From Bacteroidota bacterium (GTDB taxonomy: Bacteria; Bacteroidota; Bacteroidia; Palsa-965): a stretch of 63,516 bases of DNA. This document shows positions 15,091-51,572 of this stretch, in pieces. The DNA lies in NCBI GenBank assembly GCA_021299855.1, contig JAJTEY010000010.1:1-63516 (forward strand), read 5' to 3'. The notes beneath the pieces were generated by a model. It worked only from the letters and a program-made list of their open reading frames with translations, searched no databases and was not told the DNA's origin. The translations under genes and the position numbers were made by a program. The first letter of the stretch is position 1, and every line of letters starts with the position of its first letter.

Positions 15091-16368
15091 ATGTTGTACT
15101 ATCTGTTCTATTGGCTAGACCAAGCGTATAATTTCCCCGGAGCCGGAGTGTTTCGTTACATCTCTTTCCGTGCTGCTATGGCCGTGTTTGTGTCGTTGCT
15201 CATTTCCATGGTGTTCGGGAAGCGCATCATTGGTTTTCTACGTCGAATGCAAGTGGGCGAAACGGTTCGAGATCTGGGCTTAACCGGCCAGAAAGAAAAA
15301 GAAGGCACACCAACTATGGGTGGCTTGATCATCTTGTCTGCAATTCTTATTCCAACATTATTGTTCGCGCGATTGGATAACATCTACATCATTCTGATGA
15401 TTGTTTCTACAATTTGGTTAGGTATCATTGGTTTTCTTGACGATTATATTAAAGTTTTTAAGAAGGATAAAGCGGGCTTGCACGGGAAGTTTAAGGTGAT
15501 GGGTCAAATAGGTTTGGGAGTAATTGTTGGATGCACTCTGTATTTCAGTGATGCTGTTGTCGTTCGTGAAAAAGTTAATCCGGAAAGTAAAGATTTACTA
15601 TCACTCACAAGCGGCACTCCTGCAGCTCAAAATGTGAATGGTAATGATCTTCCATTGTTTTCTAAAAATGAAACGAAATCGCTTGCAACTACAATCCCCT
15701 TTTTAAAGAATAATGAATTCGACTATACGGATATCGCCGGAGTTTTTGGTGACGCGGCACGTCAGTGGGCCTGGATCATTTTTATTCCGATTGTGATCTT
15801 CATCATTACCGCTGTTTCCAACGGTGCTAATGTTACGGATGGAATTGACGGACTCGCTGCCGGCACATCTGCTATTATCGGTGTGGTACTTGGTATTCTG
15901 GCATACGTATCGGGTAATACCATTTTCGCGGATTACCTAAATATCATGTACATACCTGACACAGGCGAGTTGGTAATTTTTATTGCAGCATTTGTTGGTG
16001 CATGTGTCGGTTTCTTATGGTACAATGCTTATCCGGCTCAAGTGTTCATGGGTGATACGGGCAGTCTCGCGTTGGGAGGAATTATCGCGGTGTTCGCGAT
16101 CGCTATTCGCAAAGAGTTACTCATACCGATTATCTGCGGCGTATTTCTGGTGGAAAATTTGAGTGTCATACTTCAGGTTGCTGTTTTCAAATACCGCAAA
16201 AAGAAATTCGGTATCGACTACGCGAAAGCGAATCGCTTATTCCTGATGTCACCATTGCATCACCATTATCAGAAGAAAGGCTTTCATGAATCCAAAATTG
16301 TATCACGATTCTGGATTGTTGGAATCATGTTGGGCGTACTGGCAATCGCAACATTGAAACTGAGATAA
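15091..16368 (+). CDS. mraY: phospho-N-acetylmuramoyl-pentapeptide-transferase
   Basis: 425-aa polytopic membrane protein with [13 protein letters not shown] and [11 protein letters not shown] motifs. Confidence 0.95.
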
Positions 16369-20483: not shown

Positions 20484-21888
20484 TCAGTTGAAACATATAC
20501 ATTTCATTGGCATTGGCGGTATCGGCATGAGTGCTTTGGCTCGCTATTTCCTTAAGTCGGGCAAAACGGTTTCAGGTTATGATAAAGTGCGTTCTGAAAT
20601 TACGGATGCTTTGCAGAACGAAGGCGCACAGGTTTATTTCGAAGAGCGCACGGACTTCGTGAAGTTGCTGACTGATAAGTATGATGAAAACGAATTGTTA
20701 CCGGTGTATACTCCGGCTATTCCTGCAAATCATGCTGAATTACAATTCCTTCACTCGATTAAGCATACAATTAAAAAGCGCGCTGAAGTTTTAGGGATTA
20801 TCACTTCCGGAGCTAAAACACTTGCAGTTGCCGGTACACATGGTAAAACTACCACTACAACTTTATTGGCGCATTTATTGAAATCATCCGGAAAAAATGT
20901 CTCTGCATTCTTGGGTGGTATTTCCAATAATTACGGAACGAATTTGCTCTTAGGTAATCCGCTATCTGAAACCGATGAACATTTTGTCGTTGTAGAAGCA
21001 GATGAATATGATCGTTCATTCCTGCATTTAAAACCATATATATCTATAGTTACAGCAACCGAACCGGATCATTTGGATATCTATGGAACTGAACAGGAAA
21101 TGTTGAATGCTTATGCCGAATTTGTAAATCAAATTTCTGCACAAGGTGCATTAGTATATAATCGTAATGCAACCCAAATCAACTTGAACAATGCAACATG
21201 CACGCAGCTTTCGTATTCCATTCGTAACAACGCTGATGCTATTGCAACGAACATTCATATAGCGAAAGGTCTGTACGTTTTCGATTATAACTTCAACGAT
21301 GTAAAATACGACCGTTTAAAGTTAGGATTGCCCGGACGACATAACGTTGAAAATGCCGTGGCTGCAATAACAGCTGCTACTTTGGTTGGCTTGAAGGAGT
21401 TTGATATCAGAGTGGGCTTGGAAAGTTTTAACGGTGTTGGACGACGTTTTCAAAAACAACTGCAATCTGAAAAGCTCGTAGTGATTGATGATTACGCACA
21501 TCATCCTACAGAAGTTCAGGCATGTTTGAGTTCTGTTAAAGAATTGTATATCGGTAAAAAGATTACAGCTGTTTTTCAGCCGCATTTATTTTCACGTACT
21601 AAAGATTTTCACAAAGAATTCGCAGCTGCTCTTTCCCTCGCTGATCAGGTGTTGTTAATGGATATTTATCCTGCACGTGAGCTTCCTATTTCCGGAGTAA
21701 GTTCAGCAATGATTCTGGAACATATTACTTCGGCACAAAAACAATTGGTACATGCCAATAGTGTTACAAGCGAGTTGCTGAATAATCACGGGGATGTTGT
21801 TGTGTTCATGGGTGCGGGTAATATCGAATTGTTGGTAAAGCCGTTTTGTAAAGCATGGTTGCAGAAAGAGAAGGAGGTGTTGTCATGA
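20476..21888 (+). CDS. murC: UDP-N-acetylmuramate--L-alanine ligase
   Basis: 470 aa with HFIGIGGIGMSALA N-terminus and P-loop AGTHGKTTTT. Confidence 0.95.
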   Translation: MYSQLKHIHFIGIGGIGMSALARYFLKSGKTVSGYDKVRSEITDALQNEGAQVYFEERTDFVKLLTDKYDENELLPVYTPAIPANHAELQFLHSIKHTIKKRAEVLGIITSGAKTLAVAGTHGKTTTTTLLAHLLKSSGKNVSAFLGGISNNYGTNLLLGNPLSETDEHFVVVEADEYDRSFLHLKPYISIVTATEPDHLDIYGTEQEMLNAYAEFVNQISAQGALVYNRNATQINLNNATCTQLSYSIRNNADAIATNIHIAKGLYVFDYNFNDVKYDRLKLGLPGRHNVENAVAAITAATLVGLKEFDIRVGLESFNGVGRRFQKQLQSEKLVVIDDYAHHPTEVQACLSSVKELYIGKKITAVFQPHLFSRTKDFHKEFAAALSLADQVLLMDIYPARELPISGVSSAMILEHITSAQKQLVHANSVTSELLNNHGDVVVFMGAGNIELLVKPFCKAWLQKEKEVLS

Positions 21889-22685
21889 AGCGTTTCATTC
21901 GTCCCGTATTGTGGACACTCTTTCTAGTCGGAATTATTGCAGTTACAGGATTTTCAGTAGGTCGCAATGCTGATCGTGTATGCGAAAATTTAAAAATAAC
22001 AATCGATTATCAGGGTGCAGGAATCTTCCTTACTGGAGAGGATATCAAGGAAGTATTGGAGCAGCAGCAAACTCCGGTAATCAGACAACAACGATCGGAA
22101 ATTGATGTGTTATGGTTGGAACAACAAATTGGTAAACATCCGGCCGTGCAATATGCTGACGTTTTCTCCAATGTAAATGGTGACGTAACGATTAATGTAA
22201 CGCAGCGAAAGCCAATCGCTCGCATTGTTACGGTTACGAATGAATCCTACTACATGGATAGCAGAGGTTTCATAATGCCATGGTCGGATAAATATGCCGC
22301 GCCGTTATTGCTGATCAACGGAAGAATTGCAGATTCTTATGGCAATTACTATCCGTACAACTTTAGTCAGATTCCTGCTGATTCTGCCATAAAGACTAAC
22401 TATATGCTTGATGACGCATGGCACGTGGCTGCAGCAATCACTGCAGATTCATTTTTGACCGCGCAAATTGCTCAAGTGTATATATCGAGTGCTCGTTCCA
22501 TAGAATTGATTCCGCGAATTGGAAGTCATGTTATAAAAATTGGTGATGTAACCGATCTTGATAAAAAGCTAAAAAAACTGATCCTTTTTTATAGGAAGGG
22601 TCTATCTCAAACCGGTCGTTGGGAGGATTATGCTATCATCGATCTACGTTTTAATAATCAAATTGTCTGCACCAAAAAACAATAA
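21885..22685 (+). CDS. ftsQ: cell division protein FtsQ
   Basis: About 266 aa from ATG 21885 (ATGA overlap with the murC stop, AAGGAGG upstream). One N-terminal TM followed by a POTRA-like region. Sits between murC and ftsA. Confidence 0.8.
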   Translation: MKRFIRPVLWTLFLVGIIAVTGFSVGRNADRVCENLKITIDYQGAGIFLTGEDIKEVLEQQQTPVIRQQRSEIDVLWLEQQIGKHPAVQYADVFSNVNGDVTINVTQRKPIARIVTVTNESYYMDSRGFIMPWSDKYAAPLLLINGRIADSYGNYYPYNFSQIPADSAIKTNYMLDDAWHVAAAITADSFLTAQIAQVYISSARSIELIPRIGSHVIKIGDVTDLDKKLKKLILFYRKGLSQTGRWEDYAIIDLRFNNQIVCTKKQ

Positions 22686-22687
22686 AT

Positions 22688-23965
22688 ATGGAATCTGAAA
22701 TTGTAGTCGGCCTTGATATCGGCACCACTAAAATCGCTGCTCTGGTGGGTAGAAAAACCGGACATGATAAAATCGAGATACTTGGAATCGGTAAAGCCGA
22801 ATCGCTGGGTGTTGCGCGCGGCGTAGTTTTAAATATCGACGAAACCGTGAAGGCTATAAAGTTGGCAGTTGATGAAGCTGCAGCAAAATCAGGTGTCGAT
22901 ATTAAAGTAGTGAACGTTGGTATTGCAGGGCAGCACATTAAAAGTGTTCAACATCGCGGCATGAAAACGCGCCGTTCCATTGATGAAGAAATTAGTCAGA
23001 AAGATATCGATGAGTTAATCGAAGACATGTATCGTTTGGTAATGTCGCCCGGTGAGGAAATTATACACGTGATACCGCAAGAGTATATCGTGGATAATGA
23101 AATCGGAATTAAGAATCCGATTGGCATGGCCGGTACACGTCTTGAAGCGAATTTCCATATTATCACAGGGCAAGTTGCCGCCGCTCGTAACATTTACAAA
23201 TGCGTGAACAAGGCGGGACTCGAGGTGCAGGATCTCACATTGGAACCGTTAGCTTCTGCTGATGCAGTATTGAGTAAAGAAGAAAAAGAAGCCGGAGTAG
23301 TGCTCGTTGATATTGGTGGCGGAACTACTGATGTCGCAATTTTTCACGATGGAATCATTCGTCACACTGCCGTAATTCCATTTGGTGGCAACATTATAAC
23401 CGAGGATATCAAAGAAGGTTGCAGCATTATTAAAACCCAGGCTGAATTGCTGAAGATGAAGTTTGGTTCTGCATTGGCCAGCGAAAATCAGGAGAATGAA
23501 ATCGTCTCTATTCCGGGCTTGAGAGGTCGACCACACAAGGAAATTTCTGTTCGCAATCTGGCTAATATTATTCAGGCCAGAATGGAAGAAATCATCGAAC
23601 ACGTGTATTATGAAATCAAGAATAGCGGATTCGAGAAGAAATTAATTGCAGGAATTGTTGTTACCGGTGGAGGAGCTCAGTTGAAGCATATCACACAGTT
23701 AATGGAGTTCGTTACCGGAATGGATACTCGTGTTGGTTATCCTAATGAACATCTGGCTGCAAGTTCTGAAGAAGTGACCAGTCCAATGTTTGCAACAGGT
23801 GTGGGCCTTGTTATGCGTGGATTACAAAATGTTCAAGGTACAAAGCAAAACGAAGTGAAGGAACCTACTAAGGTGAAAGGACATTCCGATGATCGCAAAC
23901 GTGGTGGATGGTTTGATCAGATTTTTACCAAAGGAAAACAGTGGTTTGAAGAGGATTCGAATTAA
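22688..23965 (+). CDS. ftsA: cell division protein FtsA
   Basis: 425 aa, actin-like ATPase with VGLDIGTTKIAALVG, VDIGGGTTDVAIF and VVTGGGAQL. Confidence 0.95.
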   Translation: MESEIVVGLDIGTTKIAALVGRKTGHDKIEILGIGKAESLGVARGVVLNIDETVKAIKLAVDEAAAKSGVDIKVVNVGIAGQHIKSVQHRGMKTRRSIDEEISQKDIDELIEDMYRLVMSPGEEIIHVIPQEYIVDNEIGIKNPIGMAGTRLEANFHIITGQVAAARNIYKCVNKAGLEVQDLTLEPLASADAVLSKEEKEAGVVLVDIGGGTTDVAIFHDGIIRHTAVIPFGGNIITEDIKEGCSIIKTQAELLKMKFGSALASENQENEIVSIPGLRGRPHKEISVRNLANIIQARMEEIIEHVYYEIKNSGFEKKLIAGIVVTGGGAQLKHITQLMEFVTGMDTRVGYPNEHLAASSEEVTSPMFATGVGLVMRGLQNVQGTKQNEVKEPTKVKGHSDDRKRGGWFDQIFTKGKQWFEEDSN

Positions 23966-24066: not shown

Positions 24067-26151
24067 ATGGACTTTTACGGAATATTTGACGAAGACCAAA
24101 ACAACGAACAAGAACAGAAGTTCGAGATGGGATTCTTTAACACATCCGGAGCCATGGAAGATTCGGGTGATGCAGCTGATAGCAATTCTGAGGTTAACGC
24201 TGATGCTTCAAATGAGGCAGGAGTTTTCGAATTTGATATCGTCGGTGAACAGGAAATATTCGATTCTGAATTTGAAGAGAAAATCACATCTGTAAGTGAA
24301 GAAAGCCAAATGCTAGCTTCACAAGAAACGATTGTTGTTATGGAGCTGGAAAATGAAACAACAAACAATATCGTGAACCGGGAGGAAGAGGAGTTGATGC
24401 CGCAAAATAGTGTAGAGTCGAAGGTAATGAACGAAGTCGAAATGATTTTTGAAACACCGTTTCCCGTTACCGAAGCTGATCCTTTAGGACTAGTGGGCGC
24501 TGCAGCCTTCGTGCAGCAAGAATTTGAAAACACAACACAACATACAAACACTCAAACAGATTTAACTATGACTTTTGATTTACCCAATCAGTCTTCCATC
24601 ATCAAGGTAATTGGTGTAGATCTCGGTGGTCGCCGTATCATTAAAAACAAAAATCGCATGGGAATTAAAGGTGTGGATTTTGTCGTATGCAACACCGATA
24701 AGCAGGCATTAGACATGAGTCCGGTTCCGAATAAAGTAGTACTTGGTGCAACACTTACTGAAGGTCGTGGTGCAGGATCTATTCCTGAAGTTGGTCGTAA
24801 TGCTGCAATTGAAAATATCGAAGATATTCGTCAGCTTCTTGCTAATAATACCAAGATGGCATTTATCACTGCAGGTATGGGCGGTGGAACAGGGACAGGT
24901 GCAGCTCCTATCATTGCAGGTATCGCTAAAGAATTAGGTGTACTTACTGTTGGTATTGTAACAGTTCCATTTGCGTTTGAAGGAAACAAACGTAAGCAGC
25001 AAGCTGAGCATGGATTGGAACAACTAAAGCAAAACGTAGATACATTGCTCGTTATCTGTAACGATAAGTTGCGTGAAATGTACGGTAACTTGAAACTTAG
25101 CGATGCATTCGGTCACGCAGATGATGTATTGACCATTGCTGCGAAGAGTATTGCTGAGATTATCAGCATCTCTCAGCAGATTAACGTGGACTTCGCTGAC
25201 GTTTGCACTGTAATGCGTGATAGCGGCGTTGCCATTATGGGCTCTGCTTCGGTATCAGGAGAGAATCGTGCTGTACGTGCTGTAGAACAAGCATTGATGT
25301 CGCCATTGTTGAATGATAACAATATTTCCGGCGCACGTTATGTGTTGCTGAATATCGTTTCCGGTACGGAAGAAATTACAATGGATGAGTTGGGCGAAAT
25401 CACAGACTATATTCAGGAAGCAGCAGGTCAAACTGCTGAGATCATTAAAGGTTACGGCGTAAATCCTGAATTGGGTGATGCAGTTAACGTAACTATTATC
25501 GCTACGGGGTTCAATCAAAGCAATCCTGTAGCCTACGAATATTCACGTAAACCTGAACAAGAGATAATCGTGAAGCAGTTGGACGAAACTCCGGTACAGG
25601 AATTATTTACACCTCCGGTACAGGAAGTTAAGGCGCCTGAAGCAACTGTTGATCCGCTGGAACCATTCTTGATCTCCAAGAATGAAGAGCCGGTAATCAG
25701 TAATGAAGTACCAAATTCATCTAACGTAATTGAATTTGAAGTAAACAACGTCGCAGAAGTGCAAATGGAGTTTAATATTTCTGAAGTTGAAATGCAGGAA
25801 GAAGAACTCGTTCAGGAGCCGGAATTGCTTGAGCCTGTATTGAAGGTTGTTGAACAAACAGAAAAAAATGAAAGTGTTCAGGAGGAAGTAGTTCGTGTAG
25901 AAAAGGAAGAGCAGCAGCGCAGAATGAGTGATCGTGTGCAGAAGTTGAAAGAGATGAGCTTGAAGTTGAAAACTCAGGCAGGATTAAGCGAAATTGAAAA
26001 CGAGCCTGCATACAAGCGTCGCAATGTTCAGTTGGATAACGTTCCTCATTCTTCAGAAACTCAGGTGTCTCGTTATACCTTGAGCGAGAACGAAGACAAG
26101 AAGATCGAAATTCGTCCGAACAATTCATTCTTGCACGATAACGTAGACTAG
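24067..26151 (+). CDS. ftsZ: cell division protein FtsZ, atypical (167-aa acidic N-terminal extension; T1 glycine loop substituted)
   Basis: 694 aa. The tubulin/FtsZ core runs from MTFDLPNQSSIIKVIGV (internal ATG 24568) with T4 signature AGMGGGTGTGAAP, then a long linker and the Bacteroidota-type C-terminal peptide (..EPAYKRRN....NNSFLHDNVD). Canonical position after ftsA. Confidence 0.9.
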   Translation: MDFYGIFDEDQNNEQEQKFEMGFFNTSGAMEDSGDAADSNSEVNADASNEAGVFEFDIVGEQEIFDSEFEEKITSVSEESQMLASQETIVVMELENETTNNIVNREEEELMPQNSVESKVMNEVEMIFETPFPVTEADPLGLVGAAAFVQQEFENTTQHTNTQTDLTMTFDLPNQSSIIKVIGVDLGGRRIIKNKNRMGIKGVDFVVCNTDKQALDMSPVPNKVVLGATLTEGRGAGSIPEVGRNAAIENIEDIRQLLANNTKMAFITAGMGGGTGTGAAPIIAGIAKELGVLTVGIVTVPFAFEGNKRKQQAEHGLEQLKQNVDTLLVICNDKLREMYGNLKLSDAFGHADDVLTIAAKSIAEIISISQQINVDFADVCTVMRDSGVAIMGSASVSGENRAVRAVEQALMSPLLNDNNISGARYVLLNIVSGTEEITMDELGEITDYIQEAAGQTAEIIKGYGVNPELGDAVNVTIIATGFNQSNPVAYEYSRKPEQEIIVKQLDETPVQELFTPPVQEVKAPEATVDPLEPFLISKNEEPVISNEVPNSSNVIEFEVNNVAEVQMEFNISEVEMQEEELVQEPELLEPVLKVVEQTEKNESVQEEVVRVEKEEQQRRMSDRVQKLKEMSLKLKTQAGLSEIENEPAYKRRNVQLDNVPHSSETQVSRYTLSENEDKKIEIRPNNSFLHDNVD

Positions 26152-26155
26152 TAAG

Positions 26156-26599
26156 ATGAATCTGGAAGAGAAAGTTCAGGCTGATATGAAGGCTGCGATG
26201 CTGGCTAAGGATCAACCCAAGCTGGAAGCTATTCGTGCAATCAAATCTGTACTGCTGCTATTAAAAACTTCTCCTGATGGTTTAACGGAAGAGTCTGCAA
26301 TTAAAGCTTTGCAGAAAGAAGTAAAGAAGCGCAAGGAGACAGCCGAGTTGTATGTTTCGCAGGCACGTCAGGATTTAGCAGATGTAGAAGTATTTCAGGC
26401 TGGTGTAATTGAGTCTTATCTGCCAAAGCAAATGGGTGAAGCGGAATTACGCGATGCACTGAAAGTATTGATTAGCGAAGTAGGTGCGTCCGGTCCCGGT
26501 GATATGGGAAAAGTGATGGGTGCCGCCACTAAGAAGTTTGCAGGTATAGCGGATGGTAAATTGATTTCTGTAATTGTAAAAGAGATATTGAGTTCGTAA
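26156..26599 (+). CDS. GatB/YqeY domain-containing protein
   Basis: 147 aa with the typical YqeY sequence (..DMKAAMLAKD...L.AIRAIKS.....E...R.E.A..Y......DLA..E.....ES.LP). Starts 4 nt after ftsZ. Confidence 0.8.
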   Translation: MNLEEKVQADMKAAMLAKDQPKLEAIRAIKSVLLLLKTSPDGLTEESAIKALQKEVKKRKETAELYVSQARQDLADVEVFQAGVIESYLPKQMGEAELRDALKVLISEVGASGPGDMGKVMGAATKKFAGIADGKLISVIVKEILSS

Positions 26600-28833: not shown

Positions 28834-30258
28834 TTACATCATGCCTTCCATTCCTCCGCCCGGCATAGGCATCGGCTTGTCTTCCTTAATTTCGGAAAGA
28901 ACGCACTCTGTAGTCAATAGCATTCCTGCAATAGACGCAGCATTTTCTAATGCAACACGCGCCACTTTTGTAGGGTCGATAACACCTGCATCGTAAAGCT
29001 TCTCGTATGTTTCAGTACGTGCGTTATAACCGTAATCACCTTTGCCTTCACGTACTTTCTGCACCACGATAGAACCTTCAACACCTGCATTCGCGCAGAT
29101 CTGACGTAAAGGTTCTTCAATAGCACGACGGATAATGTGAACACCTGTTGTTTCGTCGTCATTGTCGCCTTTCAATTTATCCAGCGCATCTTGCACGCGG
29201 ATATAAGCAACGCCGCCACCCGGTACAATTCCTTCCTCAACCGCAGCACGTGTTGCATGTAATGCATCGTCTACGCGATCTTTCTTCTCTTTCATTTCCA
29301 CTTCAGTTGCAGCACCAACGTATAACACTGCTACACCGCCGGCCAACTTAGCCAAACGCTCCTGCAACTTTTCTTTGTCGTAATCAGAAGTGGTAGATTC
29401 AATTTGTGCTTTAATCTGATTAACACGTGCAACGATGTCGTTCTTTTTACCGGCACCACCAACAACTGTAGTGTTGTCTTTATCAATGGTAACTTTTTCT
29501 GCACGACCCAGGAACGATAACTCAGCGTTCTCCAGTTTGTAACCGCGCTCTTCGCTGATTACCTGGCCGCCGGTAAGAATTGCGATGTCTTCCAACATTG
29601 CTTTACGACGATCTCCGAAGCCTGGAGCTTTAACAGCAGCAATGCGCAGTGATCCGCGAATCTTGTTCACTACCAATGTAGCTAGCGCCTCGCTGTCTAC
29701 ATCTTCAGCAATAATCAAAATTGGTTTGCCGGTTTGTACCGCCTTTTCAAGTACCGGAAGTAATTCCTTCATGTTGCTGATCTTCTTGTCGTAAATCAGA
29801 ATCAGCGGATTGTCCAATACAGCTTCCATTTTGTCTGCATCAGTCACGAAGTATGGAGAAATGTAACCGCGATCAAACTGCATACCTTCTACAACTTCAA
29901 CAGTTGTTTCGGTGCCTTTTGCTTCTTCAACCGTGATAACACCTTCTTTCTTCACACGACCCATTGCTTCAGCAATTAACTTACCGATAGCGCTGTCGTT
30001 GTTCGCAGAAATAGTAGCAACTTGCTCAATCTTTTCATTGTCGTCGCCAACTTTCTTCGACATCTTCTTTAGGTTTTCAACCACTGTTGCAACAGCCTTA
30101 TCAATACCGCGCTTCAAGTCCATCGGATTAGCTCCTGCAGCAACGTTTTTCAAACCTGATGTTACGATTGCTTGCGCCAATACAGTCGCAGTTGTAGTTC
30201 CGTCACCGGCAACGTCTGCAGTTTTGGAAGCTACTTCCTTAACCATTTGAGCGCCCAT
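28834..30258 (-). CDS. groEL: chaperonin GroEL, apparently 5'-truncated (first ATG corresponds to E. coli Met69)
   Basis: 474-aa ORF beginning [29 protein letters not shown] and ending ..GGGMEGMM. GroEL homology ([21 protein letters not shown]) continues in frame upstream to about 30321 with no ATG/GTG/TTG. The groES stop is at 30333. Confidence 0.9.
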
Positions 30259-30611: not shown

Positions 30612-30791
30612 TGCTTATAAATTTTGAGTTATTACGTTTGGTTTATTGTGTTAAAGCCCGAAGGCATCCTACTTGCACCAATATTATACCAATCCTTACT
30701 TTTTTTATGATCAACGCCAATATTACAGTTTCATTGAAAAAAAAATGCCAGGAAATGACATCCTGACATTGAGTGTATTTTGTAATAAAAA

Positions 30792-31157
30792 TTACTTCGG
30801 TTGTGGTGCCGGTTGTGGTGCCGGTGCAGCGGGCTGTTGCGGCTGTGGCTGTGGCTGTGCTGCTGGTGCCTGATTGTTGAAGTCTGCCGCGCGGTCTTTA
30901 GTGGTTGATGTTCCGCCTTCTCCACCTACGCGGCTTCCTGAACTTAAGCTGGCACTAAAAATACTCAACACCAATAGCGCTACCGCCAATCCCCATGTAG
31001 CTTTTTCCAAAAAGTCTGCCGTACGACGAACGCCCATTACTTGAGCGCCTGAAGTAAAGCCGGAAGCTAATCCGCCGCCTTTAGGATTTTGAATCAATAC
31101 AGCCAGCACCAATAGGATGCAAATCAGGATAATCAGAATGGAAATAACTGCGGTCAT
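30792..31157 (-). CDS. secG: preprotein translocase subunit SecG with Pro/Gln/Ala-rich C-terminal tail
   Basis: 121 aa with two TM segments and the [10 protein letters not shown] motif. Tail reads [26 protein letters not shown]. Confidence 0.85.
30798..30870. repeat. GC-rich low-complexity tandem repeat encoding the SecG PQA tail
   Basis: CGGTTGTGGTGC occurs twice in tandem (30798-30821), followed by GGCTGT/GGCTGTGGCTGTGGCTGTGCTGCTGG-type degenerate repeats. Confidence 0.7.
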
Positions 31158-49564: not shown

Positions 49565-49634
49565 TACCGTAAAGTTAGTGAAATGCCTTTGTTATTGATG
49601 GTTGGAGGGATTTCCTGTGTACCTTTGCACCCTC

Positions 49635-51572
49635 ATGATTTCAGTTAGTAATCTTACAGTTGCATTTGGCGGATTCACGCTATACGACAATATTTCATTT
49701 ATGGTTGGAGCCCGCGATCGTATTGGTCTTGCGGGTAAAAACGGGGCAGGTAAATCAACATTGCTAAAAATTATTGCGGGTTATCAGCGTCCTGATACCG
49801 GCGATATTTCCATGCCATCGGGTTATACCATTGGTTATTTGGCGCAGGATATGGCGCACAATCTCGGAAAAACCGTTTTTGATGAAGCGTCCACTGCGTT
49901 TCAGGAATTGAAAGAATTAGAGCGTAAGATTGAATACATCACGGAACAACTTACCGTGCGTACGGATTATGAAACCGATTCGTACATGGATTTGATCAAC
50001 CAATTAAATGATGCTAATGAACGAATTGTAGTATTGGGTGGTCATGCAATTGAAGGAGAAGTGGAGCAGGTGTTGCGTGGGCTTGGTTTCTCGCATCACG
50101 ACATGCATCGTCTAATGGATGAATTTAGTGGTGGATGGAGAATGCGTGTAGAACTGGCGAAGATATTATTACGAAGACCGAACGCCTTGTTGCTGGACGA
50201 ACCAACGAATCACCTGGATATTGAATCTATACAATGGCTGGAAGAATTTTTGAAAACCTACGAAGGCGCTGTAATACTGGTTTCGCACGATAAAGCGTTT
50301 TTGGATAATATCACCACAAGAACAATTGAAATTTCTTTAGGCAAGCTCCACGATTATAAAGCGAATTACTCCAAATACTTGGTGTTGCGAAAAGAGCGTC
50401 GTGAGACACAGTTGGCCGCCGCTAAAAATCAGCAACGCGAAATTGAAAAAACGGAACGTTTGATTGATCAGTTTCGTGCGAAGTCGAGCAAAGCTTCATT
50501 TGCGCAATCCTTGATTAAGAAGCTGGATCGTATGGAGATTATCGAAATTGATGATGAAGATAATTCATCAATTCGCTTTCGTTTTCCTCCTGCTCCACGA
50601 TCCGGAAAGGTTGTTGTAGAAGCGAATCAATGCGTAAAATACTATGACGACAAGTGTATCCTGAATAAGGTTGACGTGATGATTGAACGTGAAGATAAAG
50701 TTGCGTTCGTCGGAAGAAACGGAGAAGGTAAATCGACCATGATTCGAATGATTATGGGTGAAGCCACTACATCCGGCGAAGTGAAGCAAGGTTTTAGTGT
50801 AGATGCCGGTTATTTTGCTCAGGATGATGCGGACACGATGAATCCGGATAAAACGGTTTTTGAGACTATCGACGAATTGGCTCTTGGTGATGTAAGGAAG
50901 CAAGTGCGTGGGATTTTAGGTTCGTTTTTGTTTAGCGGTGATACTGTAGATAAGAAAGTTAAAGTATTGTCCGGTGGTGAACGTACGCGACTGGCGTTAT
51001 GTCGATTGTTGTTAAAGCCGCACAACTTATTGATTCTGGACGAACCTACGAATCACCTTGACTTGCGTTCGAAGGAAGTGTTGAAGCAAGCACTGATGAA
51101 CTTTGATGGAACGCTGATTGTAGTTTCTCACGATCGTGATTTTTTACAAGGCCTGACGAATAAAGTATTCGAGTTTAAGGGTGGTCAGGTGAAAGAACAT
51201 TTGGGTGATGTGTATGAGTTTATTCGTTCGCGAAAGATTGACGAATTGAGTGATCTTGAAAAGAAAACATCTCCATTCACGGCTAGTAAGCCGGAACCTA
51301 AACCGGCAAAGAATACCATTGATGAAGGCGCGAAAGAGCGTGAGAAAGAAGTTCGCCAGTTAAAAAGTAGATTAGCGAAGAAAGAAGAAGAAATAGCGCA
51401 GCTGGAAGCGTTTATCAAGAAGTTCGATGAGCAACTTGCGGATCCCGGTAAATACCAGGAAATAATGAATAACAAAACAGCTTACGCTGAATATGATCAG
51501 AAACGTAAGCTGTTGGAGCAATGTATGGAAGAATGGACGGCTTTAAACGAGCAGATTGATGCTTCGAATTAA
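49635..51572 (+). CDS. ABC-F family ATP-binding cassette protein (two NBDs, C-terminal coiled coil)
   Basis: About 645 aa from ATG 49635. Two Walker A sites (GKNGAGKST, GRNGEGKST), two signature motifs (FSGGWRMR, LSGGERTR) and no TM domain. Confidence 0.92.
   Translation: MISVSNLTVAFGGFTLYDNISFMVGARDRIGLAGKNGAGKSTLLKIIAGYQRPDTGDISMPSGYTIGYLAQDMAHNLGKTVFDEASTAFQELKELERKIEYITEQLTVRTDYETDSYMDLINQLNDANERIVVLGGHAIEGEVEQVLRGLGFSHHDMHRLMDEFSGGWRMRVELAKILLRRPNALLLDEPTNHLDIESIQWLEEFLKTYEGAVILVSHDKAFLDNITTRTIEISLGKLHDYKANYSKYLVLRKERRETQLAAAKNQQREIEKTERLIDQFRAKSSKASFAQSLIKKLDRMEIIEIDDEDNSSIRFRFPPAPRSGKVVVEANQCVKYYDDKCILNKVDVMIEREDKVAFVGRNGEGKSTMIRMIMGEATTSGEVKQGFSVDAGYFAQDDADTMNPDKTVFETIDELALGDVRKQVRGILGSFLFSGDTVDKKVKVLSGGERTRLALCRLLLKPHNLLILDEPTNHLDLRSKEVLKQALMNFDGTLIVVSHDRDFLQGLTNKVFEFKGGQVKEHLGDVYEFIRSRKIDELSDLEKKTSPFTASKPEPKPAKNTIDEGAKEREKEVRQLKSRLAKKEEEIAQLEAFIKKFDEQLADPGKYQEIMNNKTAYAEYDQKRKLLEQCMEEWTALNEQIDASN

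Follow-up and report, generated by a model that had tools for sequence, protein, structure and literature searches.

The native ftsZ gene of the population studied here resembles canonical bacterial FtsZ, e.g., that of Escherichia coli, Staphylococcus aureus, and Bacillus subtilis (structures 9isk, 3vo8, and 2vam): it encodes GGGGSN as T1 glycine loop, GGGTGTG as T4 signature, an FtsZ_C domain, and a conserved C-terminal peptide, and it follows ftsA in the dcw cluster. In the contig as printed, by contrast, the T1 loop is overwritten. The second described system to which this locus must be compared is the contamination of assemblies with Illumina P5/TruSeq adapters, a known class (FCS-adaptor or adaptor contamination is mentioned in 1,679 papers in a literature search) that is routinely screened for, e.g., with VecScreen and FCS-adaptor. 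Such remnants usually face outward at the ends of contigs and contain the inner adapter as well (AGATCGGAAGAGC...). In the window (the whole stretch of DNA that was analysed, 63,516 nt), the sequence is identical (29/29 nt) and ATCATT leads into the same A-rich tail, but the remnant lies 24.6 kb inside a 63.5-kb contig, lacks the inner adapter, and is a one-for-one replacement that leaves the open reading frame (ORF) intact. It is this internal, in-register, and ORF-preserving position that is unusual. The altered segment of ftsZ is almost certainly a technical artefact, i.e., Illumina P5 adapter sequence and a run of A's laid over 33 nt of native sequence in register.

The affected gene (24067..26151, plus strand, 694 aa) is located in a dcw cluster with the order murC - ftsQ-like (21855-22685) - ftsA - ftsZ, beside a yqeY-like gene (26156-26599), and its canonical position is confirmed by ftsA directly upstream (22688..23965, plus strand, 425 aa). 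The conserved GTPase core of the protein starts at M168 (ATG at 24568). Pfam matches to Tubulin (PF00091; 2.9e-38) and FtsZ_C (PF12327; 1.6e-21) were obtained, and solved FtsZ structures align without gaps (best E value, 1.3e-80), placing VIGV-DLGGRRIIKNKNRM-GIKGV of the window opposite VIGV-GGGGGNAVEHMVRE-RIEGV of E. coli. The T4 signature GGGTG(T/S)G is present as AGMGGGTGTGAAP.

Nucleotides 24619-24660 of ftsZ translate to DLGGRRIIKNKNRM at the position of the T1 glycine loop (patch-bearing string, GATCTCGGTGGTCGCCGTATCATTAAAAACAAAA); the motif GGGG(S/G)N is absent from the contig FtsZ as printed, which reads DLGGRR. A first-pass annotation had described a T1 loop replaced by a basic stretch of equal length, with an intact T4 signature and no glycine loop in the alternative frames. 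The sequence does read this way, and the reverse-complement frames likewise lack a glycine loop. The 14 residues given as the extent of the patch were too many, though the divergence itself is real: it amounts to 10 substitutions within codons 185-196 (12 codons), and the last two residues, RM, are native. At the DNA level, 18 mismatches separate the window from the native gene, all of them within nt 24620-24652 (33 nt), a pattern that point mutation cannot yield. On the plus strand, GTGTAG (24614..24619) forms a left junction common to the native gene and the adapter, 23 nt of adapter (24620..24642) overwrite the native GCGGAGGTGGAAGCAACGCCGTT, i.e., the codons for GGGGSNAV, and an A-run, AAAAACAAAA (24643..24652), overwrites the native AATCACATGT. 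The native sequence is back in register from 24653 to 24660 (ATCGCATG; ...Y/N R M), downstream of which the window is identical to all same-population contigs.

Several other origins of this block were considered and rejected. A compensated double frameshift does not apply, because neither alternative frame contains a glycine loop and the DNA shows a block substitution without indels. A small inversion at the AGATCT palindrome is ruled out by the lack of a glycine loop in any reverse-complement frame, and gene conversion from elsewhere in the window by the uniqueness of the 29-mer described below, even with three mismatches allowed. Given the adapter identity, the likeness of VIGVDLGG to the phosphate-1 motif of ASKHA/ROK kinases is a coincidence.

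Positions 24614..24642 (plus strand) reproduce exactly, at 29/29 nt, the final 29 nt of the reverse-complemented P5/TruSeq universal adapter (GTGTAGATCTCGGTGGTCGCCGTATCATT), the corresponding P5 sequence being AATGATACGGCGACCACCGAGATCTACAC. The same 29-mer was found as adapter or trimming sequence in 175 papers by a literature string search, and the forward P5 string in 3,121. It is unique in the window, was not matched in 100 shuffles with up to three mismatches, and has a chance expectation of about 4e-13 (analytic). The AGATCT palindrome, which had been noted at the start of the patch and is indeed there, belongs to the adapter (...GAGATCTACAC). The native sequence itself resembles the adapter at this site: 11 of the first 16 nt agree (GTGTAG and GGTGG), as do 10 of the 23 overwritten nt, and the 6-nt GTGTAG is complementary to the P5 oligo's 3' end (CTACAC). 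The inner adapter (AGATCGGAAGAGC...GAGTGT) is missing, and native sequence extends as far as GTGTAG; no P7 sequence was found in the window. A 12-nt match to the inner TruSeq universal adapter (AAGAGCGTCGTG) occurs at 50392-50403 within an ABC-F ATPase gene (49602..51572). It was rejected as a second adapter remnant, since it is a 12-mer only, falls within an ordinary stretch of the ABC-F ATPase (LRKERRETQ), and about 0.4 such matches per adapter are expected by chance in 63.5 kb.

The A-run fits the same source. Illumina surface (lawn) P5 oligos carry a 10-T spacer at their 5' end, and the length of the run is as expected for reading into this T10 spacer of a surface-bound oligo, of which it would be the complement. 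A 10-T 5' spacer is also documented for immobilised P5/P7-type primers in a home-made analogue, i.e., not an Illumina flow cell (PMC11123353). A model composed of the reverse complement of P5 and 10 A's (39 nt) matches window positions 24614-24652 at 38/39 sites; only 24648 departs from it, with the native C, and the end of the model at 24652 coincides with the last mismatch between the window and the native gene. The patch is thus accounted for base by base. Among the 88 public cases that continue far enough past the adapter, A follows ATCATT in 97-99% at positions 1-6 and in 82-86% at positions 7-10 and falls to about 50-60% beyond position 10, and exactly 10 A's precede poly-G (no signal) in 4/4 public cases. 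As a side observation, the lengths of the A-runs in these 88 cases (among the adapter-bearing genome contigs L003-L122) are bimodal, with a main mode of 10-11 and a second mode of exactly 6 (12/88). The T10 spacer does not account for the 6-A class, which may stem from another flow-cell oligo or from trimming.

What the organism itself encodes can be read from its relatives and from other assemblies of the same population. A database search returned four proteins (P0002-P0005) that are 88-92% identical to the window FtsZ from end to end, including the N-terminal extension. Together with a further 694-aa FtsZ (P0121), all of them read GGGGSNAVNHMY at the T1 position, and in the alignment the four close relatives and more distant Bacteroidota FtsZ proteins read GGGGSNAVNHMYR(M/Q) at the patch site. 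P0121 is identical to the window protein at 684/694 residues, and all 10 differences lie in the patch. It is encoded on four contigs according to the cluster table and on five according to a contig look-up (NCBI, JGI, ENA, and Logan), while the window's version, a member of the same cluster, is found on one contig only and its patched protein is recorded in JGI/IMG. The native 36-mer GGCGGAGGTGGAAGCAACGCCGTTAATCACATGTAT, encoding GGGGSNAVNHMY, is identical in five independent contigs from five samples (L001 and L123-L126; JGI 3300008262, 3300042383, and 3300042691, ENA ERZ27247987, and Logan SRR9659497). On either side of the patch, these contigs differ from the window only by a few scattered SNPs and one 180-bp indel. 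Outside the patch, the background divergence is 0-2 mismatches in 2.5-7 kb, with no mismatch in about 2.8 and 2.5 kb for L125 and L126 and two SNPs plus the 180-bp indel in 7.3 kb for L001. No other same-population assembly contains the patch, and the junction of ftsZ and adapter was not found in the metagenome collection.

Since the same population natively carries GGGGSN (P0121, L001, and L123-L126), the failure of the T1 loop is that of the contig and not of the organism, whose real FtsZ is ordinary and has the canonical loop GGGGSNAVNHMY. Of the three explanations offered in the first-pass annotation, an assembly or patch artefact was the correct one, although the P5 adapter had not been recognized. 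The prediction of an unusual FtsZ impaired in nucleotide binding is not supported by the DNA and proteins of this population; the annotation had named close orthologs with GGGGSNA at this position as a refutation, and P0002-P0005, P0121, and the five same-population contigs all show this native loop. A second functional ftsZ is not required either, and tblastn with the FtsZ core across the window detected only ftsZ itself. Biologically, the patch carries no weight, and nothing about it argues for an FtsZ independent of GTP or for a second ftsZ hidden elsewhere.

The adapter is also found far beyond this population. The 25-mer AGATCTCGGTGGTCGCCGTATCATT is present in more than 120 genome contigs of unrelated bacterial and archaeal phyla (Proteobacteria, Actinobacteria, Cyanobacteria, Firmicutes, Chloroflexi, and Thermoprotei archaea), and adapter plus five A's in more than 120 metagenome contigs. 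Most copies lie at contig ends and point outward, and an A-run nearly always comes next. About a dozen copies are internal and show the same succession as the window, i.e., native sequence up to ...GTGT, adapter, 6-12 A's, and native sequence again; the reading frame is kept across the patch in 7/8 informative cases (p=0.0026). In an aminotransferase of a Campylobacterales MAG (L069), an alignment of 344 residues with PDB 3ezs crosses the patch without a gap, the only gap being a single residue far from it. Here, ...ffyNDTATTEIYTgyk... stands opposite ...ilinDECYSEIYentp..., and this comparison suggests an adapter-like native site here as well (NDE..SEIY versus ND...TEIY). For a prephenate dehydratase (L035), the alignment with 2qmx is gapped in a variable loop near the patch.

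Adapter-encoded peptides were observed inside ORFs of public MAG and genome contigs, e.g., in prephenate dehydratase, aminotransferase, M3-type peptidase, and alpha/beta hydrolase genes, namely VDLGGRRIIKK (sense) in L035, L036, L041, L088, L090, and L096 and NDTATTEIYT (antisense) in L069, L070, L094, and L101. On balance, we regard in-register internal P5 substitutions as a probably recurrent and under-screened class of artefact that would seed these peptides into public protein databases. An adapter piece deep in a long contig can swap bases one for one and keep the ORF of an essential gene open, and the patched protein then enters databases as a plausible-looking variant. Because the patch is internal, one for one, and ORF preserving, it is not flagged by end trimming and sanity checks during gene calling, and screens limited to contig ends or frame disruption miss such cases. 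VDLGGRRIIKK and NDTATTEIYT are practical flags for internal P5 contamination. A different arrangement was seen in two public contigs, with P5rc-A8-T7-P7 junctions (ATCATT AAAAAAAA TTTTTTT CAAGCAGAAGACGGCATACGAGAT) at about 138-180 of L109 and about 151-195 of L118, which look like surface-oligo or adapter dimers joined via their spacers.

The most likely route to the patch, judged from its anatomy, is mis-priming followed by a mixed-signal Read 2. The surface-bound P5 oligo (5'-T10-AATGATACGGCGACCACCGAGATCTACAC-3') would mis-prime inside the ftsZ template, with its 3' end pairing through GTGTAG and the nearby GGTGG; the agreement of 11/16 nt with the adapter makes this a plausible site for mis-priming. 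Truncated strands would then arise in clusters that also hold full-length strands, and Read 2 would report native sequence up to GTGTAG, then the adapter, and then 10 A's. Once the truncated strands run out, the calls would revert to the full-length strands, and the native sequence would reappear without a shift in cycle register. If coverage was low, the assembler may have retained the chimeric path of equal length over the native one. Simple read-through is disfavoured because the inner adapter is missing before the P5 part, and mixed clusters are favoured because the native sequence resumes in register after a templated end and a native call interrupts the A-run.

The same artefact could instead have originated at the assembly stage, by reads or contig tips with adapter and A-tail being laid ungapped onto native sequence through ungapped consensus, contig merging, or mismatch "correction," with the adapter piece kept to its end and native sequence thereafter. 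We consider this possible, though clearly the less favoured of the two. Outward-pointing adapters with A-tails are very common at contig ends and would provide raw material for merging, an ungapped overlay would likewise preserve the register, and the resemblance between native sequence and adapter (11/16 and 10/23 matches) could make an aligner tolerate the overlap. However, ordinary read-through tips have the inner adapter before P5, whereas the window is native up to GTGTAG, and the stop exactly after 10 A's together with the native non-A call is easier to reconcile with a templated end and mixed signal than with an arbitrary end of a read or contig. De Bruijn graph assemblers, moreover, are unable to change paths on 6 nt of homology. 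Far less probable is a physical chimeric library molecule, i.e., an adapter ligated or recombined into a genomic fragment and then faithfully sequenced. Adapter chimeras and lawn-oligo dimers do occur, as the junctions in L109 and L118 exemplify, but a ligation would not swap an equal number of bases and resume in register, and a ligation chimera would lack the complement of the T10 spacer, which is peculiar to the surface oligo. That the patch is real DNA, i.e., a strain-specific or sub-population ftsZ allele with a replaced T1 loop, perhaps compensated by another ftsZ, is effectively refuted already, since the open and in-frame ORF of equal length with an otherwise intact protein is outweighed by the 29/29-nt match to a synthetic oligonucleotide with a spacer-derived A-run (which would need a natural 38/39-nt copy of both), by 18 mismatches in 33 nt versus none in about 2.8 and 2.5 kb of background, by the native loop in every other same-population assembly, by the same string in contigs of unrelated phyla and archaea, and by the absence of a second ftsZ from the window.

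Independently of the patch, two genuine traits set the FtsZ of this clade apart from canonical FtsZ, namely an acidic extension of 167 aa at the N terminus and a long acidic linker. The extension (residues 1-167; 24067-24567) is acidic and of low complexity and precedes the conserved core (MTFDLP...). In relatives out to proteins of about 60% identity, it is open and in frame, and both the N-terminal motif MDxYxIFD and a FPVTEADPLGLVG segment are conserved. Between the window and L002, the differences per codon position are 18/19/38 and the indels are in frame, and the extension therefore looks coding but fast-evolving. The methionine of the core is taken as the start in some NCBI annotations of the clade's FtsZ (P0016, 527 aa). 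In the acidic linker, L001 (JGI 3300008262) lacks 180 nt (60 aa; window 25556-25735 versus L001 2872/2873), which L123-L126 carry like the window. This deletion is in frame, with short TGAA-type microhomology, and may reflect a difference between strains or a collapse during the assembly of L001.

Two further peculiarities of the contig lie outside ftsZ. At the 5' end of groEL (30322/30323), the window lacks 155 nt that are present in L123 (16257-16411) and comprise the start codon, the first ~46 codons, and the 5' leader. The groEL ORF of the window (28834..30258, minus strand) has 474 aa from an internal ATG, while GroEL has 541-542 aa in four other contigs (those of L001 and L002, L123, and JGI 3300059473). 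The borders of the gap have a 3-nt microhomology (GTT) in common; another assembly error in this contig is the probable cause, a real deletion the alternative. SNPs relative to L123, from which the window otherwise hardly departs (~99.8% identity), are clustered at 15621-15843 and 30784-31122, the latter with a 6-nt indel-like block at 30841-30846, and these clusters probably represent ordinary strain-level variation.
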